From positions 25,587 through 89,586 of the forward strand of contig JAUXSB010000008.1 in NCBI GenBank assembly GCA_030681595.1: a stretch of DNA of 64,000 bases. Reading direction: 5' to 3'. The position numbers and the translations under genes were made by a program. Within the stretch, counting starts at the first letter, position 1. Every line of letters starts with the position of its first letter. The notes beneath the pieces are model-generated. The model searched no databases, had not been told where the DNA came from, and saw nothing but the letters and a program-made list of their open reading frames with translations. Of the stretch, positions 1-59,433 are shown piece by piece. This stretch comes from Candidatus Omnitrophota bacterium (lineage in GTDB: Bacteria > Omnitrophota > Gorgyraeia > Ghiorseimicrobiales > Ghiorseimicrobiaceae).

Positions 1-69
1 TATTGCGCTTAATGTCTTTTAGAGTTAAAATATCCTTAAGTTGATAATATGTTTTAACAGGGAGGTTGC

Positions 70-1839
70 ATGATAAGTCCTACTCCACAAACACTCGAGA
101 CGCTTTTTACATCTTCTAAGTTATTAAAAGTACCCAAGAATCAAAGACAATTTGCTTGGGGGAAGAATGAGGCGTTAGAATTTATTGAAGATTTAAAAAG
201 TTATGCTGGGACTGGGCAGGGGGATCTTTTTTTAGGCACCATGATTTTTTGTAGTGCAGATGGAAGAGATGACTTTGTTAAGATTGTTGATGGACAGCAA
301 CGAATTACAACAGCATTATTACTCTTAATCGCATGCAGGAATTTGGCAAAAGCAATAAATTCTATCGGAATTGCAAATATTATTCAGCAAAGAATTACTT
401 TTGTAGATTCTACAACGGCCCAGTCTCTGGGAACGCGTCTGATTTCATCCGAATCCATTAAAGATGTTTTTGAATATATGGCTAACTTTGATTGGAATGG
501 AGATTTTCCAAATCGGATAGGTAATAGATCAGTGAAGAGGCAGGTCAATCGCGTCAAATCCATCTTTACTTTCTTTTATGAACAGATACATACATTTGAC
601 CAAGATACGCTAAGCAGATTTTTGAAAGCTATTTATAATGCGTATATAGCTCGGATTGATATTCAAGATGAAGCGGAAGCATTTAGCATTTTCGAGAGGA
701 CAAATGCTAGAGGAATTGATTTGGAGGCATCCGATCTTTTGAAGAATTTTCTTTTCGCGCAAGAAGTTGAAAATTTAGAGGAAGCTTGGCGACAGATAGT
801 TGATAATTCAGAAGGAACAATGTTGCGAATGTTAAAATATTTTTATGTTGCAAAAAAAGGGCCTGTGCTTAGGTCTGAGCTTTATAGAAAGATTAAATCA
901 TATAGCCAAACCATAGGAGCTCCGCAGCTTGTTAATGAGTTGGATAAATTCGCGAAATATTATTCTTTTGTTCAAGCTTCCGTTGAAGTTGAGACGCATG
1001 ACTACTTTGAATTTAATGATTGTGGTTTTATTTCTAATCACGAAGATCAATATGCAGCAATCCATTTAACGCTGGAAGGATTACGCTTGTTTAATATCTC
1101 GCAAATTTATCCACTAATTTATTCTGCTATAGAGAGCTTAAGGAGATTAAATGGGAGCAATAATTCTGGCATGTCTAAAAAGCTAGTTCAGTTGTTTGTT
1201 ACATTAGAAAAATATCATTTTATTAATAATGCAATATGTGATCGAGTTGGTAATGAGATTGAGAAGCTATATGCAGATTTTTGTGTAAATTACTCTGAGT
1301 GTGATGACTTTGTACGAACGACTGATGAATTGATTAATATCTTAAAAGGCCAATTGGCATCCGAACAAGAATTTATGGCTCGTTTTGTTGATATTTCTTA
1401 TTCTGCTGAAACGATACCATTAATTGTGTATATTTTTGATAGAATGGATAATATATGGTTGCATCCAGGAGAGAGAGTGCGTATTTTTAATCCAGATCGT
1501 AAGATTTTGCGTAGAAATCATAACATTGAGCATTTTTATCCTCAGACGCCCCAAGGGGGCGTAGAATTATTAACTGAGATGGTTGATGCTATCGATAATA
1601 TTGGTAATTTGCTGGTTGTGAGTTTTAGGACTAACTCAAAACTTGGGAATGTAACACCAGTTGAAAAAATCAAACTGTTAAAGAGTGATCTTAGAAGAGA
1701 AATTCAAAATCATATTTCCGTTCAGGAGTTTGTAGAAAAATATGAAGGAGTCGCTACCAATTGGGGAGCGGAGCAGATAAATAAGAGAGCAAATGAGCTC
1801 GCTCAATTAGCATATCGTTCTGTATGGAATATGATTTAG
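70..1839 (+). CDS. GmrSD-like type IV restriction / defense protein (N-terminal DUF262 ParB-like NTPase domain, C-terminal DUF1524 His-Me finger nuclease domain)
   Basis: DUF262 hallmark 'DGQQRITT' lies near the N-terminus. The DUF1524 hallmark 'RRNHNIEHFYPQ' lies near the C-terminus. Size 589 aa fits fused GmrSD/BrxU-like proteins. Local sequence looks AT-richer than the housekeeping genes. Confidence 0.65.
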   Translation: MISPTPQTLETLFTSSKLLKVPKNQRQFAWGKNEALEFIEDLKSYAGTGQGDLFLGTMIFCSADGRDDFVKIVDGQQRITTALLLLIACRNLAKAINSIGIANIIQQRITFVDSTTAQSLGTRLISSESIKDVFEYMANFDWNGDFPNRIGNRSVKRQVNRVKSIFTFFYEQIHTFDQDTLSRFLKAIYNAYIARIDIQDEAEAFSIFERTNARGIDLEASDLLKNFLFAQEVENLEEAWRQIVDNSEGTMLRMLKYFYVAKKGPVLRSELYRKIKSYSQTIGAPQLVNELDKFAKYYSFVQASVEVETHDYFEFNDCGFISNHEDQYAAIHLTLEGLRLFNISQIYPLIYSAIESLRRLNGSNNSGMSKKLVQLFVTLEKYHFINNAICDRVGNEIEKLYADFCVNYSECDDFVRTTDELINILKGQLASEQEFMARFVDISYSAETIPLIVYIFDRMDNIWLHPGERVRIFNPDRKILRRNHNIEHFYPQTPQGGVELLTEMVDAIDNIGNLLVVSFRTNSKLGNVTPVEKIKLLKSDLRREIQNHISVQEFVEKYEGVATNWGAEQINKRANELAQLAYRSVWNMI

Positions 1840-3071: not shown

Positions 3072-4403
3072 ATGGAGCCAGAAATGATTGCTGTGGAAAA
3101 TGAGATATTGGATAAACTTGCCGGAAAAGTTACCCTGATGCAGAACATGGAAGCCAAAAAAGACGCTATGTTTAAGGTATTTTTAGACGTTTACAACAGC
3201 GAAAAAGGCAAAGCACTCTTAAAACAGGTAAAAGGCATAGAGATAGAAAGTTTCTTTAATAGTTTTCTTTCTTATGGTTTAATTGAAGACCTGTTAAATG
3301 ACCAGCAGGTGGAAGATATAATGATTAATTCTTTAGGCCCTATTTTCGTGCATAAGACCAATACGGGCCTGGTTAAGTTAGACAAAAGATTTACTTCTTC
3401 TGAAGAATTAAATTTATTCATCAAGAAGCTTATTATTTTTTCCGGCAAGACCCAAGTCAGGAAGATAAATAACATAGTATTGTATAATATTAAAGGCAGA
3501 GGCAATATAGTATTTTCTCCATTTGGCCCGCAGGTTACTATTACGCGCGCCAAAGAAAAGCCTTTGAGTATTATAGAATTAATCGCAAATCGCACATTAT
3601 CATTTGAGATCGCTGCACAGTTATGGCTTTACGTTGAAGGATTAGGAATTAAGCCGGCAAACCTTATTATCTCGGGAGGGCCGGGTACAGGGAAAACTAC
3701 ATTATTAAATGCCTTGCTCGCCTTTATGCCTAGCGAAGACAGGTTGGTTGTTATTGAGGATACATTAGAGTTAAATACAGAATTAGAAGAAAATTGTTCG
3801 CGTCTTGAGAGCGACGAGGAAGTAACCTTGGCAGATTTGGTAAAGAATAGCCTGAGGATGCGCCCGGATAGAGTTATCGTTGGCGAGGTAAGAGGCGCTG
3901 AGGCGGCCGACCTTATGACCGCGATGAATATCGGTAAATATTGCATGGGCACAATGCATGCTTCTACCGCGCGTGAAACAATAATGAGGCTGGAAAATGA
4001 GCCGATGAATGTTCCGGAAGTATTGGTAAATTTAATCGATGTTTTTGTGATTACGAGGCGTTTTAATATTGACGGCAAAATTGTAAGGGCCATAGGCGAA
4101 GTTGTTGAGACTGCCGGGATGGAAAAGAAGCTGGTTTTGCTTTCTCCGGTTTGGACATTTGATTATAGTAAAAGAAAATTTGTTGAAGCGGGGGTAAGCA
4201 GTGTTTATAGGGATAAGCTTGCGGAAGTAAGCGGTGTTAGCCCGAGAGATATTATTGAGGAAATAAAATTAAGGATCGCGGTTTTAAAGTTTCTGCATGA
4301 GAAAAACATAATGGATAATAAAGACGTAACTTTGTTCTGCCGTAAGTATCACACCAGCCGTAAAGAAGCCTTGGACGGGATAGGTTTTAAATATGGTGAA
4401 TAA
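3072..4403 (+). CDS. type II/IV secretion-system family ATPase (CpaF/TadA/VirB11/FlaI-like), orphan
   Basis: Walker A 'GGPGTGKTT', Asp box 'LVVIEDTLEL', Walker B 'RPDRVIVGEVRG' and His box 'GTMHAS' are all present. No partner membrane-platform genes (TadB/TadC) are adjacent. Confidence 0.8.
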   Translation: MEPEMIAVENEILDKLAGKVTLMQNMEAKKDAMFKVFLDVYNSEKGKALLKQVKGIEIESFFNSFLSYGLIEDLLNDQQVEDIMINSLGPIFVHKTNTGLVKLDKRFTSSEELNLFIKKLIIFSGKTQVRKINNIVLYNIKGRGNIVFSPFGPQVTITRAKEKPLSIIELIANRTLSFEIAAQLWLYVEGLGIKPANLIISGGPGTGKTTLLNALLAFMPSEDRLVVIEDTLELNTELEENCSRLESDEEVTLADLVKNSLRMRPDRVIVGEVRGAEAADLMTAMNIGKYCMGTMHASTARETIMRLENEPMNVPEVLVNLIDVFVITRRFNIDGKIVRAIGEVVETAGMEKKLVLLSPVWTFDYSKRKFVEAGVSSVYRDKLAEVSGVSPRDIIEEIKLRIAVLKFLHEKNIMDNKDVTLFCRKYHTSRKEALDGIGFKYGE

Positions 4404-5262: not shown

Positions 5263-5336
5263 GCGCCCATAGCTCAACTGGATAGAGCATCAGCCTACGA
5301 AGCTGGTTGTTGCAGGTTCGATTCCTGCTGGGCGCG
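5263..5336 (+). tRNA. tRNA-Arg (anticodon ACG)
   Basis: Cloverleaf read by eye: acceptor GCGCCCA/TGGGCGC, D-arm agctcaactggatagagc, anticodon loop CTACGAA, T-arm GGTTCGATTCC. CCA is not encoded. Confidence 0.8.
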
Positions 5337-5425
5337 CAATAATTCAGAACTAAGAATTAAGAGCTAAGAGTTAAGAAAAAACCAAAAGAGAAAACGAAAA
5401 TTTGGGAAAAATTGACGAGATTTAT

Positions 5426-5874: not shown

Positions 5875-5966
5875 GGAGAGATGGCTGAGTGGCCGAAAGC
5901 AGCTTCCTGCTAAGAAGTTGACCTGGGAAACTGGGTCCCTGGGTTCGAATCCCAGTCTCTCCGCCA
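5875..5966 (+). tRNA. tRNA-Ser (anticodon GCT), type II with long variable arm, CCA encoded
   Basis: Acceptor GGAGAGA/TCTCTCC, anticodon loop CTGCTAA, long variable arm tgacctgggaaactgggtccc, T-arm GGTTCGAATCC. Confidence 0.8.
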
Positions 5967-13056: not shown

Positions 13057-13203
13057 CCCCGTTAGAGATAACAGCTATTACTAATAAGCAGGGCTTGGTA
13101 AATTACGGAAGCATAAATTTTATCAGTGAGATTTGTAAAGAACAGACGCCCCGAAGCTTCGGGGCTATCCCCGCCAGACAGAAGTCGGGCTGGTCTAACG
13201 GGG
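13057..13203. repeat. MITE-like element, family A (termini ccccgttagag... / ...tctaacgggg), copy 1
   Basis: Termini are inverted repeats. Internal hairpin cgccccgaagcttcggggc is present. Core ccccgccagacagaagtcgggctgg sits at 13168-13193. Related copies lie at 37134 and 51415. Confidence 0.55.
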
Positions 13204-13221
13204 TAAATCCTGCCTAAAATT

Positions 13222-16200
13222 ATGTTTTGGCATATTGAAGTAAAAGAAAAACGCGGCATCTTTGATGCAGTCGGCGAAGGTGTCAAAAAAGATATCTTTG
13301 ACTTAGGAATCAAATCCGTCCGTAAAGTTAGCTTTATCCAAGTTTATTCTATTGAAGGCGATTTAGCTCAAGCGGAAATCAGACGGATCTGCGAAGAATT
13401 ATTAACCGACAAAATTACCCAGGAATATTTTATTAACCGGCCAACCGGCAGGCCACAAGGCCGTGGTTTGGCCTCCGATGGCCAAAGCCACAAACCGGCC
13501 AACCGGTCAACCGAATTCGTGATTGAAGTCGCTTATAACCCCGGAGTAATGGATCCTGTGGAGGGTTCAGTAAAAAAGGCGATTTTGGATTTGGGAATAA
13601 ACAGAATAAGTAGCCTGCATACGGCGAAGAAGTACGTTATTTACGGCAGGCTTTCCAATGCTCAAATTAAAACTATCCGCGGTAAATTATTAGTAAATAA
13701 AGTAATACAACATGCCGTAACCGGCGCATCTAAAGGAGCTGAGGGAAGTGATTCGGGATATAAATTTCAGTTAGTGAGTGTTGATTTATTAAGCGCATCG
13801 GATAAAAAATTGCAAAAAATCAGCCGGGATGGGCAGTTATTTTTAAATCTTACCGAGATGCGCGCGATAAAAAAATATTTCAGCCGCCTTAAGAGGAACC
13901 CGACAGATGTGGAGCTGGAAACTTTAGCACAGACTTGGTCAGAACATTGCGTGCATAAGACGTTTAGGGGAAAGATAGATTATAAAAGAGTCACCAGTCA
14001 CCCCCGCCAGAACGAAGTCGGGCTGGAGTCATCAGTCACCAGAAGAAAAATTAATAACTTGCTTAAATCCACGATAATGAAGGCAACAAAAGAGCTGAAT
14101 AAGCCGTGGTGCGTTTCGGTGTTTAGTGACAATTCCGGCGTCATTGAATTTGACGAAAATTTTGATGTCTGTTTTAAAGTAGAGACGCATAACCATCCAT
14201 CAGCCCTTGAGCCGTTCGGCGGAGCAAATACCGGAATAGGCGGAGTAATCAGGGATCCGTTAGGCACAGGCTTGGGGGCAAAGCCAATTTTTAATACCGA
14301 TATATTTTGTTTTGGGCCGCCGGATTATCCTGTTTCAAAGCTGCCTAAGGGCAGCCTTCATCCAAAAAGGATTGCAAAGGGTGTAGTCAGCGGCGTGCGT
14401 GATTATGGCAACAAAATGGGCATTCCTACCATAAACGGCGCTGTTTTGTTTAGCGAGGGTTATATAGCAAATCCTTTAGTCTATTGCGGGACCGCCGGCT
14501 TAATCCCGAAGGACAAAGTTTTTAAAAAGGTAAATTCCGGAGATTTGATTGTAGTCATAGGCGGAAGGACCGGCAGGGACGGTATCCATGGCGCAACTTT
14601 TTCTTCCGGCGAGTTAACTCATGAATCCGAAAGCGTTTCCGGAACAGCTGTGCAAATAGGCAATCCGATTACCGAAAAAAAGATGTTGGATACCCTGCTT
14701 AAGGCGCGCGATAAAAATTTATATAATGCGATTACTGACTGCGGCGCGGGGGGGCTTTCCAGCGCGGTAGGAGAGATGGGTAAAGATTTGGGGGCAGTGG
14801 TTTATTTAGATAAAGTACCCCTAAAATATAGCGGCCTTGCTTATGATGAGATATGGATTTCAGAAGCACAGGAAAGGATGGTCCTGGCGGTAGATAAAAA
14901 AAACATAGGCGAATTACTTGATATTTTTGCTTCCGAAAATACAGAAGCAACTGTAATAGGCGAGTTTGGGCAGGATAAAATGCTCAAGCTTTTCTATCAG
15001 GATAATTTAGCCGGGGAATTGGAGATGGGTTTTCTGCATGAAGGGGTTCCTCTTTCTGTCAAGAAAGCCATAAGTGCAAAGCGTAATTTAAAAGAGCCGT
15101 ATTTAGCGGAGAAAAAAGATTTAACAGTAACTTTAAAAAAAGTGCTTTCTGATTACAACGTTGCCAGTAAAGAATGGGTGGTGCGCCAGTATGACCATGA
15201 AGTGCAGGGTTCGTCCGTTTTAAAACCGCTGGTAGGTATAAATAATGATGGCCCGTCGGATGCGGGGGTTGTGCGGCCCGTTTACTCGTCTAAAAAAGGC
15301 TTGGCTGTTTCCTGCGGCATAAACCCGCGCTATGGAGAGATATCTGCCTATTGGATGGCGGCATCCGCTATTGATGAGGCGCTGAGAAATATCGTCTCTG
15401 CCGGAGGCAATTTAGAGCGCACAGCGATTTTAGATAATTTCTGCTGGGGCAATCCGGATAAGCCGAACCGGTTAGGAACGCTCGTTGATGCGGCTTTTGC
15501 CTGCTATGATTTTGCCAAATATTTTGGAGTGCCGTTTATTTCCGGGAAAGACAGCTTATATAACGAATATAACGTAAAAGGAAAAAGTATCGCCATACCG
15601 GGGACGCTTTTGATCTCGGCAATTTCTGTAATGGAGGATGTAACAAAGGCCGTTTCAATGGATATCAAAAAGCCCGGAAATCTGATTTATATCGCAGGAG
15701 AGACCAAAAATGAATTAGGTGGTTCGGTTTATTATAAATTGTATGATTATTTGGGCGCTAATGTGCCGCAGGTGGATAGAAAAAAATCCAAGGGAATTAT
15801 GCAAGCATTGAGCCGTGTAATAGCCGAAGGTTTAGTAAGGTCAGCCCATGATTGTTCGGAGGGCGGATTAGCGGTTAGTTTAGCAGAGATGTGTTTTGCC
15901 GGAGGATTTGGCGCCGAAGTATTTTTGAGCGAAGTGCCGTATCAAGCCGCAAGCTTCAAGCTTCAAGCTTCAAGCTTCAAAGCCTGCAGCCTGCAGCCTG
16001 CAGCTGTTCGCAATGACATAATTTTGTTTTCGGAGTCAAACACGCGGTTTGTGGTAGAGATAGAAAAGAAAAATCAGAAGGTGTTTGAGAAGGCAATGCA
16101 GGATGTACCGTTGGGCCTTATCGGCTGCGTGTCTGGCGGCAAAGTGTTAGATATTTATGGGCTTGACCGCAAAATATGCGTCAGGGCGGATATCAACGAG

Positions 16201-16236
16201 TTGAAAGAGGTATGGCAGGCGCCATTGAGGTGGTAA
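13222..16236 (+). CDS. purL: phosphoribosylformylglycinamidine synthase, PurS-PurS-PurL fusion (tandem PurS domains fused to FGAM synthase II)
   Basis: Residues 1-80 and about 110-180 are each PurS-like. The remainder is PurL (AIR-synthase-related repeats). The gene also carries in-frame repeat insertions (see findings). Confidence 0.85.
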   Translation: MFWHIEVKEKRGIFDAVGEGVKKDIFDLGIKSVRKVSFIQVYSIEGDLAQAEIRRICEELLTDKITQEYFINRPTGRPQGRGLASDGQSHKPANRSTEFVIEVAYNPGVMDPVEGSVKKAILDLGINRISSLHTAKKYVIYGRLSNAQIKTIRGKLLVNKVIQHAVTGASKGAEGSDSGYKFQLVSVDLLSASDKKLQKISRDGQLFLNLTEMRAIKKYFSRLKRNPTDVELETLAQTWSEHCVHKTFRGKIDYKRVTSHPRQNEVGLESSVTRRKINNLLKSTIMKATKELNKPWCVSVFSDNSGVIEFDENFDVCFKVETHNHPSALEPFGGANTGIGGVIRDPLGTGLGAKPIFNTDIFCFGPPDYPVSKLPKGSLHPKRIAKGVVSGVRDYGNKMGIPTINGAVLFSEGYIANPLVYCGTAGLIPKDKVFKKVNSGDLIVVIGGRTGRDGIHGATFSSGELTHESESVSGTAVQIGNPITEKKMLDTLLKARDKNLYNAITDCGAGGLSSAVGEMGKDLGAVVYLDKVPLKYSGLAYDEIWISEAQERMVLAVDKKNIGELLDIFASENTEATVIGEFGQDKMLKLFYQDNLAGELEMGFLHEGVPLSVKKAISAKRNLKEPYLAEKKDLTVTLKKVLSDYNVASKEWVVRQYDHEVQGSSVLKPLVGINNDGPSDAGVVRPVYSSKKGLAVSCGINPRYGEISAYWMAASAIDEALRNIVSAGGNLERTAILDNFCWGNPDKPNRLGTLVDAAFACYDFAKYFGVPFISGKDSLYNEYNVKGKSIAIPGTLLISAISVMEDVTKAVSMDIKKPGNLIYIAGETKNELGGSVYYKLYDYLGANVPQVDRKKSKGIMQALSRVIAEGLVRSAHDCSEGGLAVSLAEMCFAGGFGAEVFLSEVPYQAASFKLQASSFKACSLQPAAVRNDIILFSESNTRFVVEIEKKNQKVFEKAMQDVPLGLIGCVSGGKVLDIYGLDRKICVRADINELKEVWQAPLRW
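13434..13512 (+). repeat. in-frame repeat insertion in purL inter-PurS linker (direct repeats aaccggccaaccgg flanking an inverted repeat gtggtttggcc/ggccaaagccac)
   Basis: Seen directly in the sequence. It encodes the low-complexity peptide NRPTGRPQGRGLASDGQSHKPANRSTEF. Confidence 0.5.
13990..14042 (+). repeat. in-frame insertion in purL: agtcacc heptamer repeats flanking the family-A core cccccgccagaacgaagtcgggctgg
   Basis: The core is near-identical to the intergenic core at 13168-13193, with flanking gtcaccagtcacc / agtcatcagtcaccag. Confidence 0.5.
15950..16003 (+). repeat. in-frame tandem heptamers in purL: (caagctt)x4 then (cctgcag)x3
   Basis: Seen directly; encodes ...ASFKLQASSFKACSLQPAA... 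Confidence 0.6.
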
Positions 16237-16902
16237 ATGGATAAAGAAAAACTAATCAAAAAAGATGACTTTACTTCGGAAGAAACGTGGCGGATTTTCC
16301 GCATCATGGGAGAGTTTGTCGACGGTTTTGAGGTTTTATCCAAGGTGGGTAAGGCTGTTTCTATATTCGGTTCAGCCCGCCTTACTCCTACGGATAAATA
16401 TTATAAGTTAGCCGAAGAAACAGCTTATTTATTGGCTAAGGCCGGTTATGCCGTGATTACCGGCGGCGGGCCGGGGATCATGGAAGCAGGCAATAGCGGT
16501 GCAAAAAGAGCGGGTGGCCATTCTATTGGCTTGAATATCCAGATTCCTACGGAGCAAAAAGCGAATGAATATATCGATACGCTTCTGGACTTTCGTTACT
16601 TCTTTGTACGCAAAGTTATGTTTGTAAAATATGCCAAGGCGTTTGTGATCTTTCCCGGCGGATACGGCACGTTAGATGAATTGTTTGAGTCACTAAATTT
16701 AATCCAGACCCAGCGGATAGATAACTTTCCGGTAGTCTTGGTAGGCAGTGATTACTGGCAGGGGTTGATTAGCTGGATTAAAGATACGGTGTTGGCGCGG
16801 TACTGTATATCGCCTTCGGATTTGAATATTTTTAAAATAGTGGATAAGTCCGAAGACGTAGTTAGGATAATTAAAAAGTTTTACGCAAACAGTAAAAAAT
16901 GA
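16237..16902 (+). CDS. LOG family protein (cytokinin riboside 5'-monophosphate phosphoribohydrolase-like, TIGR00730 type)
   Basis: Carries the LOG motifs 'GGGPGIMEA' and 'PGGYGTLDEL'. Confidence 0.8.
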   Translation: MDKEKLIKKDDFTSEETWRIFRIMGEFVDGFEVLSKVGKAVSIFGSARLTPTDKYYKLAEETAYLLAKAGYAVITGGGPGIMEAGNSGAKRAGGHSIGLNIQIPTEQKANEYIDTLLDFRYFFVRKVMFVKYAKAFVIFPGGYGTLDELFESLNLIQTQRIDNFPVVLVGSDYWQGLISWIKDTVLARYCISPSDLNIFKIVDKSEDVVRIIKKFYANSKK

Positions 16903-17696
16903 CCAAGCCTAAAGCCTTAATTCTGCGTACCGCAGGGACAAATTGCGACAAGGAGACAAAGTTTGCCTTTGAGTTGGCGGGTGCCGCGGCAGAGCTTGTG
17001 CACATAAATGAAATTATAAAAGGCAGCGTTAAATTGTCTGATTATCAGATTTTGGCTCTGCCGGGAGGTTTTTCTTACGGCGATGATGTCGCCGCAGGAA
17101 AAATTTTGGCAAATGAGCTAAGGTTTAAAATGAGGGAAGATTTGAGCGGGTTCATCAAAGAGGGCAAACTTATTATCGGCATCTGTAACGGTTTTCAAAT
17201 TTTAGTCAAGGCAGGAATTTTACCGGGGAACGATGGTTTTGAGCAGGAGGCAAGCCTGATTATTAATGATTCAGGAAAGTTTGAAGACCGCTGGGTGTAT
17301 TTACGGGTTACGGGTTATGGGTTACGGGATACGAACTGCGTATGGACAAAGGACTTAGCGGAGATAGTATACCTTCCGGTGGCGCATGGGGAAGGAAAAT
17401 TTATTACAAAAGATAAGGCGGTTTTAGAAGGGTTGAAAAAGAATGGACAAATTGTTTTTCAGTATTGCGATAGGCAAGGGAGCTTAACCGGATACCCGGA
17501 CAATCCTAATGGTTCAGTGGATAATATTGCGGCAATTTCTGATAAGGCTGGCAGGATTTTTGGGCTTATGCCGCATCCCGAGCGCCACATTCTTGGGACA
17601 CAGCACCCGCGCTGGACGCGCCAAGGTTTAAAAAAATATGGCGATGGATTAGCAATTTTCCGTAACGGAGTAGAATATGCGAAGAAAAATCTCTAA
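16899..17696 (+). CDS. purQ: phosphoribosylformylglycinamidine synthase glutaminase subunit PurQ
   Basis: Class I glutamine amidotransferase with catalytic 'GICNGFQIL' and a His near 'PHPER'. Confidence 0.85.
   Translation: MTKPKALILRTAGTNCDKETKFAFELAGAAAELVHINEIIKGSVKLSDYQILALPGGFSYGDDVAAGKILANELRFKMREDLSGFIKEGKLIIGICNGFQILVKAGILPGNDGFEQEASLIINDSGKFEDRWVYLRVTGYGLRDTNCVWTKDLAEIVYLPVAHGEGKFITKDKAVLEGLKKNGQIVFQYCDRQGSLTGYPDNPNGSVDNIAAISDKAGRIFGLMPHPERHILGTQHPRWTRQGLKKYGDGLAIFRNGVEYAKKNL
17300..17330 (+). repeat. in-frame tandem heptamers in purQ (gggttacgggttatgggttacggg)
   Basis: Seen directly; encodes RVTGYGLRD. Confidence 0.6.
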
Positions 17697-19131
17697 GAAA
17701 AAGAGGACAGGTTACTTTTTAAATGATGATAAACCTAAAGAATCCTGTGGTTTATTCGGTATTTATGATAATAATGAGGCGCCGTGGCTGACTTATTTAG
17801 GGCTTTATGCGCTTCAACATAGAGGAGAGGAAGCCTGCGGTATAGTCGCCAGCGACGGAAAGCATCTTTCCATACACAAAGGTACGGGCTTGGTTGCTGA
17901 TGTTTTTAACGAAGACGCGTTTAAGAATTTATCAGGATTTATCAGTATCGGGCATCTGCGTTATTCAACTACCGGCTCCAGTATTTTAAAAAATGCCCAG
18001 CCGCTTTTAGTTGATTACCTTAAGGGTTCCTTAGCTGTAGGCCATAACGGCAATTTAGTAAATACGTTAGAGTTGCGCCGTAAATTAGAAAACAGCGGTT
18101 CCACCTTTCAAACTACTGCTGACTCTGAGATTATAGTTCAACTTATGGCGCGCTGCAAGAACTCGGATGTAATTAAGAGATTGATTTATGCGCTTAAAAA
18201 AATAAAAGGCGCTTATTCTTTGGTGATGATGACGAAAGACAGGCTTATCGGAGCGCGCGACCCGTTAGGTTTTAGGCCGTTAGTGATGGGCAGGTTAGGC
18301 ACAAGTTTATGCCTTGCTTCCGAAACTTGCGCGTTGGATCTAATCGGGGCAAAGTTAGTCCGCGAGGTTGAACCCGGAGAAGTAGTAATTATTACCAAGG
18401 ATGGTATAAAGTCCGTGCGCGCTTTCCCGAAACAGAAGCATCACGCCTATTGTATTTTTGAACATGTTTATTTTGCCCGCCCGGATTCTTTTATCTTCGG
18501 TGATACGGTTTATTCGGTGAGGAAAAAATTAGGCGCGCATCTTGCCAAAGAACACCCTGTAGATGCGGATTTTGTGATACCGGTTCCGGATTCAGGCACA
18601 TCTGCGGCAGTGGGATATTCGCAAGAATCGGGGATACCGTTAGAAATGGCGATTATCCGTAATCATTATATCGGCCGTACGTTTATACAGCCCTCTCAGC
18701 ATGTGCGTGATTTGGGCGTGCGGGTGAAGTTTAATATACTGCGCGACGTAATTAAAGGAAAACGTATTGTGATTGTTGATGATTCTATTGTGCGCGGTAC
18801 GACTTCCAAGAAGCGCGTCAAGGCGTTCAGGGCGCTGGGCGCTAAAGAAGTGCATTTTCGGATAAGCTGTCCACCGCATAAGTTTCCCTGTTTTTACGGG
18901 ATAGATTTTCATACGCAGAAAGAACTCATTGCCGCGCGTATGACGCTCGAGCAGATAAGAAAATATTTAAACGTAGATACGCTTGGGTATTTAAGCTTGG
19001 AAGGGATGTTAAAAAGTGTCAGCTGTCCCAAAGAGAATTATTGCACTGCCTGCTGGATAGGTAAATACCCTATAAAATGCGAAGGTAGGGTAACAAAGAA
19101 GGTCTTGGAGAAAAAGTGCTGCGGAGTTTAA
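17677..19131 (+). CDS. purF: amidophosphoribosyltransferase
   Basis: Ntn-hydrolase 'CGLFGIY' after a propeptide, a PRTase motif 'VIVDDSIVRGTT' and C-terminal Cys residues for an Fe-S cluster. Confidence 0.9.
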   Translation: MRRKISKKKRTGYFLNDDKPKESCGLFGIYDNNEAPWLTYLGLYALQHRGEEACGIVASDGKHLSIHKGTGLVADVFNEDAFKNLSGFISIGHLRYSTTGSSILKNAQPLLVDYLKGSLAVGHNGNLVNTLELRRKLENSGSTFQTTADSEIIVQLMARCKNSDVIKRLIYALKKIKGAYSLVMMTKDRLIGARDPLGFRPLVMGRLGTSLCLASETCALDLIGAKLVREVEPGEVVIITKDGIKSVRAFPKQKHHAYCIFEHVYFARPDSFIFGDTVYSVRKKLGAHLAKEHPVDADFVIPVPDSGTSAAVGYSQESGIPLEMAIIRNHYIGRTFIQPSQHVRDLGVRVKFNILRDVIKGKRIVIVDDSIVRGTTSKKRVKAFRALGAKEVHFRISCPPHKFPCFYGIDFHTQKELIAARMTLEQIRKYLNVDTLGYLSLEGMLKSVSCPKENYCTACWIGKYPIKCEGRVTKKVLEKKCCGV

Positions 19132-19143
19132 AACGATTTAATT

Positions 19144-20154
19144 ATGGCAAAAATAACTTATAAAAAATCCGGCGTAGATATTGGAGAAGCAGGTATTTTT
19201 AAGAATAAAATAAAGTCTTTGGTTCGGGAATCTTTCCGGCCTGAGGTCTTAAAGGATATCGGCGGATTCGGCAGTTTTTTTAGTTTCCCTAAAGATAAAT
19301 ACAAAGAACCGGTTTTGGTTTCATCTTCTGACGGTGTAGGCACAAAGCTAAAGATTGCTAGTTTAGTAAATAAACACGATACCATCGGTATTGATGCCGT
19401 AGCAATGAATGTAAATGATATTCTTTGTGTGGGCGCTGAGCCGTTGTTTTTTTTGGATTATATCTCCTATAGCAAGGTAGATTCCGGTGTGCTTATCGAT
19501 ATAGTAAAAGGCCTAAACCGCGGATGTATTGAGGCGGGTTGTTCTTTGGTGGGAGGCGAGACCGCTCAAATGCCCGGTATGTATAAGCAGGATGAATATG
19601 ATGTAGCCGGTTTTTGCGTCGGGGTAGTCGAGCGGAAGAATGTAATTGACGGCGCTAAAATTTCAGCCCGTGACGTTGTTATCGGTATAGAATCAAGCGG
19701 CCTGCATTCCAACGGCTATTCTTTAGTGCGTAAAGTTTTCTCTAAATCCGAGCTCATCCGTTATTCAGGGGAACTACTTATGCCTACCCGTATCTACGTT
19801 AAGCCTATTTTATCTTTGTTAAGGGTTAAGGGTTACGGGTTAAGGGTTAAGGGTATCGCGCATATCACCGGTGGAGCGTTCTACGATAAAATCGCGCGTA
19901 TCCTGCCGGATAATGTAAATGTCCGAATTAATAAGGATTCCTGGCCTGTGCCGAAAATCTTTAAACTTATCCAGAATAAAGGCGGGATCGCTGAGAAAGA
20001 AATGTACCATACCTTGAATATGGGCATTGGTTTGGTTTTGATAGTTGAGCCGAAAGCAAAAGAAGCCGTAATCTCGAAATTGGCTGAATTTAAGCTTAAG
20101 TCTTGGGCTATCGGTGAGGTCACCAAAGGTAAAAAAGAGGTTGAGATAGTTTAA
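19144..20154 (+). CDS. purM: phosphoribosylformylglycinamidine cyclo-ligase (AIR synthetase)
   Basis: PurM family; the N-terminus carries 'GGFGSFF' and 'DGVGTKL'. Confidence 0.9.
   Translation: MAKITYKKSGVDIGEAGIFKNKIKSLVRESFRPEVLKDIGGFGSFFSFPKDKYKEPVLVSSSDGVGTKLKIASLVNKHDTIGIDAVAMNVNDILCVGAEPLFFLDYISYSKVDSGVLIDIVKGLNRGCIEAGCSLVGGETAQMPGMYKQDEYDVAGFCVGVVERKNVIDGAKISARDVVIGIESSGLHSNGYSLVRKVFSKSELIRYSGELLMPTRIYVKPILSLLRVKGYGLRVKGIAHITGGAFYDKIARILPDNVNVRINKDSWPVPKIFKLIQNKGGIAEKEMYHTLNMGIGLVLIVEPKAKEAVISKLAEFKLKSWAIGEVTKGKKEVEIV
19818..19854 (+). repeat. in-frame tandem heptamers in purM (gttaagg gttaagg gttacgg gttaagg gttaagg)
   Basis: Seen directly; encodes LRVKGYGLRVKG. Confidence 0.6.
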
Positions 20155-20170
20155 CCTAAAGGAGGCAGAG

Positions 20171-21043
20171 ATGAACATTGTGTTTGTAGTTATTGCGGCG
20201 GTAATTTTTATTTTCTTATCCGGTATCAAAATTGTCAGGCCCACCCATCGGGGCTTAGTGGAAAGATTGGGAAAATACAACCGTTTTGCCGAGCCGGGAT
20301 TTAACTGGATTATCCCTGTCATAGAAAATATTTATCTGGTTAACATAACCGAGCAGATGGTTGATGCCGAACCGCAGGAAATCATCACCAACGATAATCT
20401 TAATGCCAAGGTAGACGCGCAGGTTTATTTTAAGGTAAAGACAGACGCTGATAGCGTAAAAAATTGCATTTATAATGTGAATAATTATCAGTGGCAGATT
20501 GTAAATTTAGCGCGTACGACTTTAAGAAATATTATAGGTACGCTTACCTTAAAGTCGGCAAACAGCGAGCGCGGCAGGATTAATGATGAATTACATAAAA
20601 CCCTGATGAATGAAACTGGCAGTTGGGGCATAGAAATTGTCCGTACCGAATTAAAGGAAATTGACCCGCCCAAAGACGTGCAGGAGACAATGAATAAAGT
20701 AGTCAAGGCGGAAAACGAAAAAATCGCCGCGATTGACTTTGCCACCGCTACCGAAACCGTCGCAGACGGCCAGAAAAGAGCCGAGATTAAGAAAGCTGAA
20801 GGTATTAAGCAGGCAAGGATCTTAGAGGCAGAGGGGGAGGCAGCGGCGATTAAGCTGGTAAATGAAGCAGCGGAGCATTATTTTGTGGGTAATGCCCAGG
20901 TTTTAAGGAAGCTTGAAGCAGTGGAAAAATCCTTGGCAAATAATGCGAAAATCGTCATCCCATCAAATACCGAATTGGTCAATGTCATCGGCGAGATGGC
21001 AGGTTTCTTACCGATTAAGAAAGAAGATAAGCCGGCAAAATAG
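20171..21043 (+). CDS. SPFH/band-7 (stomatin-like) membrane protein, second paralog
   Basis: An N-terminal TM segment is followed by an SPFH-like domain with an Ala/Glu-rich coiled-coil tail. Confidence 0.7.
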   Translation: MNIVFVVIAAVIFIFLSGIKIVRPTHRGLVERLGKYNRFAEPGFNWIIPVIENIYLVNITEQMVDAEPQEIITNDNLNAKVDAQVYFKVKTDADSVKNCIYNVNNYQWQIVNLARTTLRNIIGTLTLKSANSERGRINDELHKTLMNETGSWGIEIVRTELKEIDPPKDVQETMNKVVKAENEKIAAIDFATATETVADGQKRAEIKKAEGIKQARILEAEGEAAAIKLVNEAAEHYFVGNAQVLRKLEAVEKSLANNAKIVIPSNTELVNVIGEMAGFLPIKKEDKPAK

Positions 21044-21049
21044 TTTTTT

Positions 21050-21859
21050 ATGCACGATAAACCTGGGAAATCACCGGTTGGGCTTTTAGTTGGCACTATT
21101 GTAAGCATCGTTTTTCTTTATTGTTTAGACATTTTTACTGTTGGGCGTATTGCGCGGCCGGTTCCTTTCCCGTTTACCGATAACGAATGCTTAAACTATG
21201 AAATAAGCTATCCAAATAGCAATAATCCCGGCACGAATTCAAAAGTTTGTTTTAGGAAGAAAGGTGATAATTTTATTGAGCGTGTTAGCGGTGTGCCTTG
21301 GCTTTCAGAAGTGCTTACTACGACGTTTAACTTAGATGGATTCTCTATTCTTTCCAAAGAAGATATTGAGTATAGGATGAAGGCATTTTCACGCGATAAA
21401 AATCTCCCGTTATTTTTACAACAAGAAGAAAAAAGGGTAATGAAGGGCATGAAAGAACATTGCAGATATTTCGGCCCTCTCGACCTAGAGGCCGGGGACT
21501 TATTTTATAATAAATTTCCGGTGAAAGAATTTAGCGAATATAACAATGAGCCGGTTTATCTTGTAGAAGTTTATCCGTGGAGAGATACGCAGTATGCGGA
21601 TAAGGGTTTAGTTTCAAAATTTATTCAGAAGTTATGGTTGTTTAGTATCCGCCGCAGGCAGCAGTTTATAATGGGTTATCCTAAAAGGACAAAATCAAGC
21701 TCGGATGTTATGGAGCGCCTATATTATAGCCGAAAGAGCGGGGTATTAATGGGGAGTGAGCGTCTTTGGGTAGTTAGGGATGTTAAGGGAAATGTTGTTT
21801 CGGAGGATTCATCCAAAAAAGAGCGCGATGTTAAGACGCGTCTTATTCGGCAAAAATGA
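21050..21859 (+). CDS. hypothetical membrane-anchored protein
   Basis: One N-terminal TM segment and no recognisable motifs. It is tightly packed between the SPFH gene and purD. Confidence 0.35.
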   Translation: MHDKPGKSPVGLLVGTIVSIVFLYCLDIFTVGRIARPVPFPFTDNECLNYEISYPNSNNPGTNSKVCFRKKGDNFIERVSGVPWLSEVLTTTFNLDGFSILSKEDIEYRMKAFSRDKNLPLFLQQEEKRVMKGMKEHCRYFGPLDLEAGDLFYNKFPVKEFSEYNNEPVYLVEVYPWRDTQYADKGLVSKFIQKLWLFSIRRRQQFIMGYPKRTKSSSDVMERLYYSRKSGVLMGSERLWVVRDVKGNVVSEDSSKKERDVKTRLIRQK

Positions 21860-23199
21860 GAATTTTAGTTATTGGTTCCGGCGGCAGGGAGCATGCGCTG
21901 GTTTGGAAAATAGCGCAGTCGAAGTTGGTAGATAAGATTTTTTGTGCGCCGGGAAATGCCGGGATTTCCGATTTGGCGGAGTGTGTTGATATAAGGCCTG
22001 AAGATATCCCGGCACTGATAGATTTTGTGCGCCGGGAAAAAATTGATTTAACCGTTGTCGGCCCGGAGGCACCGCTTTCTTTGGGCATAGTTGACGAGTT
22101 TAACAATTATAAGCTAAAAATATTCGGCCCAAATAAAAAGGCAGCGAAGCTCGAGGCAAGCAAGGTATTTGCCAAGCAAATGATGGCAAAATATAAAGTG
22201 CCGACCGCGGATTTTAAAATCTTTACCGATGCCGAAGAGGCAAAAAAATATATCGATAAAATTGGCCCGTCTTGCGTAGTTAAGGCAGACGGTTTGGCTA
22301 GCGGCAAGGGAGTAGTGGTAGCTAAAACTATTAATGAGGCAAAAGACGCAGTTACCTCAATGATAGAAGAGAAGATTTTTGGCGATGCCGGTAATAGAAT
22401 TATTATTGAGGAATGTTTAGAAGGCGCGGAGGCATCGATATTAGTTTTAACTGATTCGAAAGAAGTTATCCCTCTTGCGTCAGCCCAGGACCATAAAAGA
22501 ATTTTTGATAAGGATCAAGGCCCGAATACCGGCGGGATGGGGGCTTATTCGCCCGCGCCCGTAGTAACAAATGAATTATTCAACGAAATTTTAGATAAGG
22601 TTGTATATCGTATAATCGACGGTTTGATAAAAGAAGGGATAGATTATCGCGGCGTATTATACGCCGGGATTATACTGACTAAAGAAGGACCGAAAGTATT
22701 AGAGTTTAATGTGCGTTTTGGCGATCCCGAGACGGAAGCGATATTGCCGCGCCTATCGTCTGATTTAGTAGAGGCAATGTTGGCAACAGCCGATGGCAAA
22801 TTGACTAAGTTCAAAAAATTCGGCGGCCTTAATTGGGATAGCCGCGCCTGCGTTTGTGTTGTCTGCGCTTCCGGAGGATACCCGGGAAAGTATGAAAATG
22901 GAAAAGAAATTTTTGGTTTGGATGAAGCGGCAAAGATGAAAGATGTGGTAGTCTTTCATGCGGGAACTAAAAAGTCACCAGTCACCAGTCATACCCTTAC
23001 GGGCACAGGCCAGTCACCAGTAAAATATTTTACGAATGGCGGAAGGGTTTTGGGGGTGACGGGGTTAGGTAATATTATAAAAGAGGCAGTAGATAAAACC
23101 TATAAGGCTGTAGATAAAATTAGCTTTGAGGGGATGAATTACAGGAAAGATATAGGATATAAAGCGATAGCAAATATTAAAAATCAAATATCAAAATAA
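21856..23199 (+). CDS. purD: phosphoribosylamine--glycine ligase
   Basis: N-terminus 'MRILVIGSGGREHAL' and an ATP-grasp fold. Confidence 0.9.
   Translation: MRILVIGSGGREHALVWKIAQSKLVDKIFCAPGNAGISDLAECVDIRPEDIPALIDFVRREKIDLTVVGPEAPLSLGIVDEFNNYKLKIFGPNKKAAKLEASKVFAKQMMAKYKVPTADFKIFTDAEEAKKYIDKIGPSCVVKADGLASGKGVVVAKTINEAKDAVTSMIEEKIFGDAGNRIIIEECLEGAEASILVLTDSKEVIPLASAQDHKRIFDKDQGPNTGGMGAYSPAPVVTNELFNEILDKVVYRIIDGLIKEGIDYRGVLYAGIILTKEGPKVLEFNVRFGDPETEAILPRLSSDLVEAMLATADGKLTKFKKFGGLNWDSRACVCVVCASGGYPGKYENGKEIFGLDEAAKMKDVVVFHAGTKKSPVTSHTLTGTGQSPVKYFTNGGRVLGVTGLGNIIKEAVDKTYKAVDKISFEGMNYRKDIGYKAIANIKNQISK
22974..23021 (+). repeat. in-frame insertion in purD: (agtcacc)x2-3 flanking ccttacgggcacaggcc
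   Basis: It uses the same heptamer (agtcacc) as the purL insert at 13990. It encodes SPVTSHTLTGTGQSPV just before the conserved GGRVL. Confidence 0.5.
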
Positions 23200-23223
23200 A
23201 ATTTCACGCAAGGGGGTATTTTT

Positions 23224-27043: not shown

Positions 27044-27121
27044 TTTTTATATCGTTTTGCCTGTCTACCGATAGGTAGGCATTTTACATTTTGAATTTTA
27101 AATTTTAGGAGCGAAGCTACG

Positions 27122-43480: not shown

Positions 43481-43522
43481 GAAACCAGTAATACCCTGTT
43501 GGGTACAGGCCAGAAACCAGAG
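43481..43522. repeat. short repeat family B, copy 1 (gaaaccagtaataccctgttgggtacaggccagaaaccagag)
   Basis: An inverted copy with about 85% identity lies at 49565-49608. Confidence 0.5.
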
Positions 43523-49564: not shown

Positions 49565-49608
49565 AATAAAATTCTTCTGGCCTGTGCCCGGCAGGGTATT
49601 ACTGTAAT
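49565..49608. repeat. short repeat family B, copy 2 (inverted orientation)
   Basis: The reverse complement gaaaccagattacagtaataccctgccgggcacaggccagaa matches 43481-43522. Confidence 0.5.
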
Positions 49609-58294: not shown

Positions 58295-59344
58295 ATGGAG
58301 CAGTTTAGGAAAACATTAACGGAAATAGCTAAAATTATTGACGGACAGGTTATCGGTAACAAGGATACTATTATTACGGGTATCTGCGGTATAAAAGAAG
58401 CAAAAAAAGGCGATTTGACTTTCGTGGCAAATCCTAAGTACTTGCCTTTGATTAAGCATACGCATGCCTCGGCTATTATTACTTCAAAAGAAATAGATTC
58501 GCTTTCTATGCCGATTATTCGGACCGAAAATCCATCGTTAGCGTTTGCTAAAATGGTATCCTTGTTGTCTCCTAATCATGTAATGCACCCTTCGGGCATA
58601 CATTCTACGGTTATCTTGGGTAAAAATGTAAAATTAGGCAAAGGTGTCGCTGTCGGCCCTTATGTGGTAATAGAGGATAATGTTGAAATAAGAGACAATA
58701 CGATTATATATTCCGGCTGCTATATTGGGCATCATTCGCTAGTCGGTAAAGATACCCTTATTTATCCTAATGTATCTATACGCGAGAGGATAGTTATCGG
58801 TAACCATGTAATAATTCATAGCGGTACAGTTATTGGATCTGATGGTTTTGGTTTTGCGACTGTTAGAGGTATGCATGAAAAAATACCCCAGATAGGCATA
58901 GTAGTAATTGAGGATAATGTTGAAATAGGCGCTAATGTTACAATTGACAGGGCGCGTTTTGATAAAACAATTATAGGTAAGGGTACTAAGATAGATAATC
59001 TAGTGCAGATTGCCCATAATGTGGTAGTTGGCGAGAATTCTATTATCGTAGCTCAAGCAGGAATTTCAGGCAGTACTGCTATAGGAAACGGCGTTATTCT
59101 GGCAGGGCAATCCGGTATAGTCGGCCATGTTACTATCGGCGATGGCGCGGTAGTTGCGGCTCAGGCAGGGGTGACAAAATCAGTGCCGGCAAACACAAAA
59201 GTTTCAGGTTATCCTGCCAAGCCTCACAATATCGCCAAGCGTGTAAACGCGTGTGTGCAAAATTTGCCGAATCTCCTTAAGACAGTTAATGAACTAAAAC
59301 AAAGAATTGCTAGTTTAGAAGCCCGTCAGAATGGAGCCGGGTAG
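58295..59344 (+). CDS. lpxD: UDP-3-O-acylglucosamine N-acyltransferase
   Basis: Left-handed beta-helix hexapeptide repeats. It lies in the lpx cluster. Confidence 0.9.
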
Positions 59345-59433
59345 GCCCGCCTGACTCCCGCCCGACCGAACGTCGTTCGGGCGCGGTCATTCGGGCAGGC
59401 CCCGTCAAAATGAGGCTGGGCAGGGAGAGCTGA

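Follow-up and report, generated by a model that had tools for sequence, protein, structure and literature searches.

Why should enzymes as conserved as those of purine biosynthesis carry, in frame, tandem repeats whose unit length is not a multiple of three? The question is raised by a stretch of 64,000 nucleotides (nt) from a Candidatus Omnitrophota bacterium (assembly GCA_030681595.1, contig JAUXSB010000008.1, positions 25,587 to 89,586), referred to below as the window. It holds a co-oriented purine operon, assigned from open reading frames (ORFs) and Pfam matches, in the order purS-purS-purL, a LOG-family gene, purQ, purF, purM, an SPFH gene, a hypothetical gene and purD. Tracts of about four to five tandem 7-nt units, in one case 8-nt units, lie in frame and free of stop codons within purL, purQ, purM and purD. 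An earlier examination of the DNA letters (the sequence-only reading) had listed six such sites in these four genes; all six are present, with coordinates exact or a few bases off, and Pfam confirmed the four gene identities. Arrays were located with Tandem Repeats Finder (TRF) and exact-repeat scans, and the four proteins were aligned with orthologues from 80 Omnitrophota species representatives. The nearest relatives of PurL are found in Omnitrophota metagenome-assembled genomes (MAGs) at 55–69% identity. The closest relative of the locus that was found, L082, has the same gene order as the window and 84–94% amino-acid identity. The host genes and their tracts are the following; the fused purL gene alone hosts three array sites and one fossil array.

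13222..16236, forward strand: purS-purS-purL fusion gene, formylglycinamidine ribonucleotide (FGAM) synthase II (ORF; Pfam PurS twice, FGAR-AT_linker, AIRS, AIRS_C)
13435..13506, forward strand: site 1, linker between the two PurS domains (TRF period 8), encoding NRPTGRPQGRGLASDGQSHKPANRS
13989..14040, forward strand: site 2, purL, AGTCACC twice, a 24-nt core, then AGTCATC AGTCACC, encoding RVTSHPRQNEVGLESSVT
15064..15083, forward strand: fossil heptamer array in purL, AAAGCCA TAAGTGC AAAGCG; AAAGCCA x2.9 at the orthologous position of L082
15943..16004, forward strand: site 3, purL composite (TRF), encoding QAASFKLQASSFKACSLQPAA
16899..17696, forward strand: purQ, glutaminase subunit of FGAM synthase (Pfam GATase_5)
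17301..17333, forward strand: purQ array, TTACGGG x4.7 (TRF; x4 exact at 17301-17328), encoding LRVTGYGLRD
19144..20154, forward strand: purM, aminoimidazole ribonucleotide synthetase (Pfam AIRS, AIRS_C)
19818..19854, forward strand: purM array, GTTAAGG x5.3 with one unit GTTACGG (TRF), encoding LLRVKGYGLRVKG
21856..23199, forward strand: purD, glycinamide ribonucleotide synthetase (Pfam GARS_N, GARS_A, GARS_C)
22973..23021, forward strand: purD composite, AGTCACC x2.7, an 18-nt core, then CCAGTCACCAGT, encoding KSPVTSHTLTGTGQSPV

The sites differ in their internal structure. At site 1 the octamer direct repeat AACCGGCCAACCGG, whose unit is also written AACCGGCC, stands at 13435-13448 and again at 13493-13506, and between the two copies lies a hairpin with an 11-bp stem (arms 13463-13473 and 13480-13491; DNA fold z = -4.8). 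The arrangement of direct, inverted and direct repeat that had been proposed for this linker is real, although its unit is 8 nt long and not 7. No significant folding was found by DNA fold z-scores at the other five of the six window sites, and the idea that all composites form hairpins was rejected, site 1 alone being significant. The window protein is 11 amino acids (aa) longer here than that of L082, whose array at this place is CCCCGAA-type. The 24-nt core of site 2 (14003-14026, CCCGCCAGAACGAAGTCGGGCTGG) belongs to a small dispersed repeat that we call fam1; L082 has CAAAAAT x4.9 at this site. Site 3 joins two arrays, CAAGCCG, four copies of CAAGCTT and CAA in its first half (15943-15980; CAAGCTT-type x5.4) and AGCCTGC x3.4 in its second (15981-16004), with units that include the palindromes AAGCTT and CTGCAG; L082 has CAAGTGT x3.4 only. 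The purQ array is GGGTTAC-type and forms a G3N4 x4 motif of G-quadruplex-like appearance, and at its place L082 has AAAAGTC x3.6. The purM array is kept in L082 with 3 substitutions. The 18-nt core of the purD composite (22992-23009, TACCCTTACGGGCACAGG) is a second small dispersed repeat, fam2, and the whole composite adds 36 nt compared with L082, which has no array at this site.

Period 7 is clearly in excess. Of exact two-copy repeats with period 7 the window has 24, where triplet shuffles predict 4.2 (maximum 8); at periods 6, 8 and 9 such repeats stay at background level. In 1.39 Mb of Omnitrophota DNA, 24 exact arrays of at least 3 copies have period 7, compared with 4, 1, 1 and 0 for periods 5, 6, 8 and 9. 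Only period 7 shows a heavy tail, with a second mode at 23–27 matched bases that corresponds to arrays of 30–34 nt or 4.3–4.9 units. Out of about 64 ORFs in the window, arrays of at least 2.5 units all lie inside pur ORFs, and outside the pur genes of the window 7-aa peptide periodicity is at background. A heptamer motif common to the arrays was sought and rejected: with AGTC present in just 7 of 39 units, they do not form a single family.

That the tracts are assembly artefacts, or their hosts pseudogenes, had been named as an alternative and can be set aside with near certainty. Over 13140-22891 (9.75 kb), a span with five of the six array sites, the independent Logan assembly of SRR13727519 agrees with the window at every base (100% identity); the tracts are shorter than reads and assembly k-mers; the genes are intact with full-length Pfam matches, and the pattern recurs in dozens of MAGs from different studies. 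Arrays of this type can nonetheless mislead assemblers, as one contig joined exactly at such an array shows. In this contig (L210; ENA ERZ27254836 k141_70530, at about 680-740) a leuS fragment of high GC content runs into the 3′ portion of a purQ from Omnitrophota, with the junction exactly at a AAGGTGTC/AAAGTGTC octamer array. The contig had been considered as a second frameshifted (OFF) allele besides the one described below (P0130 / L210) and was discarded as an assembly chimera.

The tracts are not peculiar to this genome. Each array site coincides with a length-variable loop in the alignment, and many of the 80 species have a low-complexity insert of their own there, which at the DNA level is a heptamer array with units that differ between genomes; in the purQ loop these units include CTACGGC, GTCCACA, CAGGCCG, AAGTCAC, AGTCGTC, TTACGGG, ACAGAAA, AACGACC, ACGAAAG and AGACACC. 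Per 100 kb, purQ has 21.9 arrays, purL 12.2, purM 10.3 and purD 3.3, and purF, the LOG gene and the remainder have about 2. Thus purL, purQ and purM are enriched 5–10 times over the surrounding DNA, and about 80% of the arrays in the 80 loci fall inside purL, purQ, purM or purD. The sites are recurrent hot spots across the clade and not one-off insertions. The related claim that orthologues are contiguous at these positions fails within Omnitrophota, where the loops vary and many carry their own arrays, and holds for solved homologues from other phyla, which lack the residues: relative to them PurD has 12/13 extra aa (2yw2, 1gso), PurM 4 and PurQ 4. What stands is that the tracts are additional sequence, variable between lineages, in the loops of conserved enzymes.

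In the 120 PurQ homologues from public data that match best, loop length is bimodal, 7–9 aa in 18 and 14–16 aa in 94, and the long versions often show a 7-aa periodicity. Loops in purM are mostly 5 aa longer, those in purD 7 or 14 aa longer, with exceptions. An exact quantisation in steps of 7 aa was considered and holds only approximately, the PurQ classes being 7–9, 14–16 and 20–21 aa. In an AlphaFold2 model the PurQ insert (aa 137–142) is a low-confidence coil with a predicted local distance difference test score (pLDDT) below 50.

The coding constraint on the arrays is visible in several ways. All of the 60-odd arrays in the 80 species lie within intact genes, and no pur gene in these species is frameshifted at an array; apparent frame changes in tblastn alignments of pur genes came from a purF paralogue beside purF and not from array frameshifts. 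On the coding strand the units contain 15% T, a poverty due to the avoidance of stop codons. In purM the sole deviant unit, GTTACGG, stands at the exact place where GTTAAGG would put TAA in frame, and this variant is common to the window and L082. These observations bear out the selection proposed in the sequence-only reading, in that surviving arrays are filtered for reading frame and stop codons, and its remark that heptamers cannot come from codon-level slippage also holds. Its further statement that the arrays occur only as frame-preserving sets does not, since a relative carries an allele one unit shorter in which purQ is frameshifted. The two loci concerned, L203 and L204, represent the same strain in two different metagenomes, and over 6,392 nt they differ by a single AAGTTCGC unit (-8 nt) and nothing else. 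In the shorter allele purQ is split into ORFs of 144 and 105 aa (locus coordinates 3405-3441). The units of this genome are mostly 8 nt long (CAAAGTCA, AAGTTCGC and AGTCACAA).

Other comparisons of close relatives reveal further modes of change. Loci L205 and L206 match throughout 1,901 nt save for a 24-nt insert, CCCCTCGACTGCGCTCGGGGCAAG, within a TACGAGT array. The purQ genes of L208 and L209 are about 98.5% identical outside the loop, yet one has AAAGTGTC x4 and the other AAAAATC x4.9. Between L030 (CTATCGA) and L028 (CTATCAG) every unit has changed. Between the window and L082, the purM array and an array upstream of nrdR are retained, purQ has another heptamer and all three purL arrays differ. 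The nrdR-upstream array and a further tract at the end of purD are located as follows.

23167..23206, forward strand: degenerate A/T-rich period-7 tract (ATATCAA-type) over the purD stop codon (TRF)
27081..27107, forward strand: intergenic array ATTTTAA x3.9 just 5′ of nrdR (TRF; nrdR by Pfam)

The L082 orthologue of the latter is ATTTTTA x4.6 (its 20427-20458). In the alignment the window PurD extends 9 aa beyond the L082 protein at its C-terminus (23146-23199), which coincides with the tract at 23167-23206. We conclude that unit slippage, insertion or excision of mini-elements and concerted replacement of whole tracts all occur, far faster than point substitution in the flanks. The suggestion of a mobile or slippage element was sound in both its components, each of which is seen in relatives (L203/L204 for slippage, L205/L206 for the mobile one).

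The cores of the two AGTCACC composites in the window are dispersed repeats, with copies outside genes.

13170..13193, forward strand: intergenic fam1 copy CCCGCCAGACAGAAGTCGGGCTGG in the purL leader, 2 mismatches to the purL copy; the L082 leader is without it
43492..43509, forward strand: intergenic fam2 copy TACCCTGTTGGGTACAGG with AGAAACC-like heptamer flanks
49581..49598, reverse strand: intergenic fam2 copy TACCCTGCCGGGCACAGG with AGAAACC-like heptamer flanks

A riboswitch as explanation of the fam1 copy in the purL leader was rejected, the leader matching no Rfam family. With 6 mismatches, a possible additional fam1 copy at 59322-59345 is weak; a CCCGCC-rich tract of period 11 comes after it. 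The genic copies of fam1 and fam2 both interrupt AGTCACC arrays, an arrangement with parallels in L205, L006, L008 and L049, and both families are missing from the orthologous sites of L082. The 24-nt element in purQ of L205 and the purD core of L006 are members of one family. A different nested element, the GC-rich palindrome CCTGCCTGCC(N0-4)GGCAGGCAGG, is dispersed in many Omnitrophota, both between genes and in frame inside heptamer arrays; it is carried by L028, L074, L049, L021, L030, L006, L008, L011 and L042, and the window is without it. Its arms show a compensatory change between L018 (CCCGCCgttGGCGGG) and L028 (CCTGCCgttGGCAGG).

Units are also shared between genes of one genome. In the window purL and purD both have AGTCACC, while purQ and purM both have GGGTTAC/GGGTTAA; elsewhere AACGACC (L008), AGTCCAC (L006) and GGTCTAC (L009) are each found in three genes. 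A metagenome scan for (AGTCACC)x3 returned at least 120 contigs (L083-L202) with host GC contents of 38–72%. Their arrays lie mostly just up- or downstream of genes, with a length peak at 27–34 nt, and none of these metagenome matches falls in a pur gene. The notion that AGTCACC arrays target pur genes in general was consequently rejected, the metagenome arrays being widespread and mostly intergenic. The few in-frame cases include a CopA-type ATPase (L118) and a membrane glycosyltransferase (L109). Several arrays per contig, AGTCACT variants among them, were seen in L164, L173, L177, L181 and L188.

How, then, did the tracts arise and why do they persist? The account that we favour, with a probability of roughly one half, is that they are hypermutable 7- and 8-nt microsatellites with nested small dispersed repeats, inherited with their loops, remodelled where they stand and subject to a filter for frame and stop codons. 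A typical tract has 4–5 units (28–37 nt) and sits in a sequence-tolerant loop or linker of PurL, PurQ, PurM or PurD. Colonisation would have been early in the Omnitrophota clade, and the tracts would since then probably have been inherited along with the loop instead of being inserted again and again. Rewriting could take three routes. Single units could be gained or lost by slippage, a route that leads by way of out-of-frame alleles without function, since neither 7 nor 8 is divisible by 3; a tract could collapse and re-expand, all its units being altered together; and mini-elements could be inserted and excised, with tracts as their landing pads. Slippage during replication or repair is the probable engine. 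Selection on the enzymes would then leave net lengths of 3n without stop codons in all three phases, and from such a filter would follow the T-poor units, the change from TAA to TAC in purM and a size of about four units (one ancestral unit plus three). The tracts themselves are presumably non-adaptive, and their peptides would be functionless, disordered loop filler.

Several observations weigh against this account. Growth from about one unit to about four requires three frameshifting steps or a single +3 event, and no more than one OFF intermediate was seen. Intergenic arrays, which are under no frame constraint, likewise favour 4–5 units, so the frame filter cannot be the sole cause of that size. 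Loop tolerance alone does not explain why purL, purQ and purM are preferred over neighbouring genes. The site-3 composite is identical at 55 of 60 positions between the window and L209, in flanking DNA that is only 68% identical, and half of this conserved composite is missing from the much closer relative L082; such conservation is odd for a neutral, hypermutable tract. Within single genomes, 10 array pairs have a common unit (at most 1 mismatch) where 2.35 would be expected, a value not reached in any of 2000 label permutations, and both AGTCACC composites arose after the split from L082. Local slippage alone does not predict this sharing within genomes, which therefore favours some copying between loci. 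Sites with a common unit have similar flanks, however (TTA plus an R/K codon in purQ and purM, AAAA(G) at the AGTCACC sites), and shared units may have been seeded locally in parallel.

A greater role for copying is a tentative alternative: arrays, or heptamer-core-heptamer composites of about 30–50 nt, would be pasted from locus to locus by an enzyme or a template (RNA- or DNA-mediated), in a manner similar to a proposal for the small dispersed repeats (SDR) that lie in heptamer repeats of Nostoc, and slippage would be secondary. The recurrence of one heptamer in several genes of a genome, with its permutation result, speaks for this, as do the lack of both AGTCACC composites in L082 and the near-identity of the site-3 composite across species at 68% nt identity. 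So does the 24-nt element, polymorphic in otherwise identical genes, with family members in purQ of L205 and purD of L006, and the intergenic fam2 copies bring along AGAAACC-like flanks, as if core and flanks might move jointly. On the other hand, no transposase, reverse transcriptase or RAYT-like gene was found in a scan of 39 of the about 64 window ORFs, array ends have no fixed phase or length, the similar flanks of shared heptamers are compatible with local seeding, and the one-unit polymorphism shows that slippage operates. It is unlikely, in our view, that the tracts are adaptive contingency loci in which gain or loss of a unit switches costly de novo purine synthesis reversibly ON and OFF. 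Such switching could suit the lifestyle of very small cells that at times get purines from a host or their surroundings. Units that are not multiples of 3 nt are a hallmark of phase-variable genes, the frameshifted purQ allele is exactly one unit off the intact allele in otherwise identical DNA from two metagenomes, and the tracts are concentrated in one pathway, 5–10 times in purL, purQ and purM, with all window arrays of at least 2.5 units in pur genes out of 64 ORFs. Yet there is one OFF allele only, and the arrays of 80 species are all in intact pur genes. Several tracts per gene and operon occur where one would do, about four units make a short tract for switching at a high rate, the pathway members purF, purE and purB have none, and some tracts are decaying. 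A combination of the two ideas, in which 7- and 8-nt arrays and mini-elements would be actively written or copied into particular pur loops and serve there as heritable, reversible ON/OFF switches, is rather doubtful; if true, it would amount to phase variation of a core metabolic pathway.

Function at the nucleic-acid level, with the in-frame peptide as by-product, is very improbable. Under this explanation the arrays would be G-quadruplexes, protein-binding heptad arrays or pause sites, which agrees with the G3N4 x4–5 motifs of purQ and purM (similar to GGGNATC), the conservation of the site-3 composite across 68%-identical species and the four-unit preference even of intergenic arrays. Most units, however, have neither G-tracts nor a shared motif (AGTC in 7 of 39), units at one site can be wholly different between close relatives, and five of the six window sites are without significant folding.

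Whichever mechanism applies, repeats with non-3n units are expected to be purged from coding DNA, and here they persist in frame in conserved enzymes of a poorly known phylum. The locus offers a natural system for studying the origin and turnover of heptamer microsatellites, long noted but to our knowledge never explained, as well as target finding by tiny mobile repeats and the making of new disordered loops in old proteins. With a purQ allele frameshifted by one unit, it becomes conceivable, and testable, that slippage of repeats turns purine synthesis on and off. In practice, the tracts can lead metagenome assemblers to build chimeric contigs and can break up gene calls; they also provide very fast strain markers.

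The surroundings of the arrays have features of their own. A LOG / lysine-decarboxylase-like gene (16237-16902) lies between purL and purQ and is present in 63 of the 80 loci; an SPFH gene and a hypothetical gene without Pfam match (20171-21859) separate purM and purD. These three are conserved passengers, unusual for a pur operon. The N-terminus of the window PurF (17677-17750, SKKKRTGYFLND region) is 10 aa longer than in L082. Directly 5′ of purF, many Omnitrophota carry another purF-like gene, with about 30% identity to PurF (L008, L014, L016, L019, L026, L029, L030, L032, L034, L035 and L037); the window is without it. Farther away, a GmrSD-type restriction endonuclease gene (modified-DNA-dependent) opens the window (58-1836). 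A tRNA gene at 5263-5336 is followed immediately by an AATTAAG/AACTAAG array of period 7/14 (5341-5377), and a second tRNA, with a long variable arm, lies at 5875-5963.

The sequence-only reading had not recognised the repeats as a described phenomenon. As a class, bacterial heptanucleotide repeats are known, and it is the in-frame colonisation of housekeeping enzymes that appears undescribed; a literature search combining Omnitrophota or Omnitrophica with repeats found nothing relevant. Heptamers are reported to be the most over-represented long simple sequence repeats in many bacteria, with polymerase slippage proposed as their origin (Mrazek 2007), and the heptamer repeats described include cyanobacterial STRR, GGGNATC (Xanthomonas, Nostoc) and TAACTGA (Beggiatoaceae, cyanobacteria, Bacteroidetes). 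These three are reported to lie mainly between genes, with under-representation in coding regions, and GGGNATC has a clear four-unit preference and a demonstrated formation of G-quadruplexes. The Omnitrophota arrays resemble them in being short 7-nt tandem arrays with a preference for about four units, in the genome-specific units found at several loci, and in the variation of array length and sequence between close relatives. Tracts of at least four G3 runs at 7-nt spacing are present in the purQ and purM arrays and not in the AGTCACC, CAAGCTT and AGCCTGC arrays. Unlike the three families, the arrays described here are in frame within conserved housekeeping enzymes, in the same loops across many Omnitrophota species.

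Contingency loci of Haemophilus, Neisseria and Mycoplasma are similar in having non-3n tracts within ORFs, where the gain or loss of a single unit puts the gene out of frame, a change that is shown here for the relative L203/L204 only; they differ in that the hosts here are housekeeping biosynthetic enzymes and not surface or restriction-modification genes, and in that the tracts are short and several to a gene. The SDR of Nostoc punctiforme (Elhai et al. 2008, Genome Res 18:1484) are reportedly 21–27 nt long and often embedded in tandem heptameric repeats. The elements described here are likewise dispersed, 18–24 nt long and nested in heptamer arrays; they have copies both inside and between genes, and near-identical strains (L205/L206) can differ in having or lacking one. 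They belong to another phylum, however, and a hairpin is not evident in the window cores (composite fold z = -0.3, -1.3). Rickettsia palindromic elements (RPE) are selfish palindromes of 100–150 bp that sit in frame in conserved genes at tolerant positions. The repeats of the window share this location at structurally tolerant positions of conserved genes, and differ from RPE in their size (28–72 nt), in being mostly tandem repeats with a significant hairpin at site 1 only, and in their lineage. The in-gene repeat units of Borgs are said to be multiples of 3 nt, unlike the window units of 7 and 8 nt, for which each tract is read in three frames. Borg tandem repeats are reported to be fast-evolving, recent and independently arising, and to add intrinsically disordered regions to proteins (PMC9879509); quick evolution and the addition of disordered protein segments are common to both. 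The repeat class is thus general, and its dense, in-frame, site-recurrent occupation of purine enzymes appears to be the new part.

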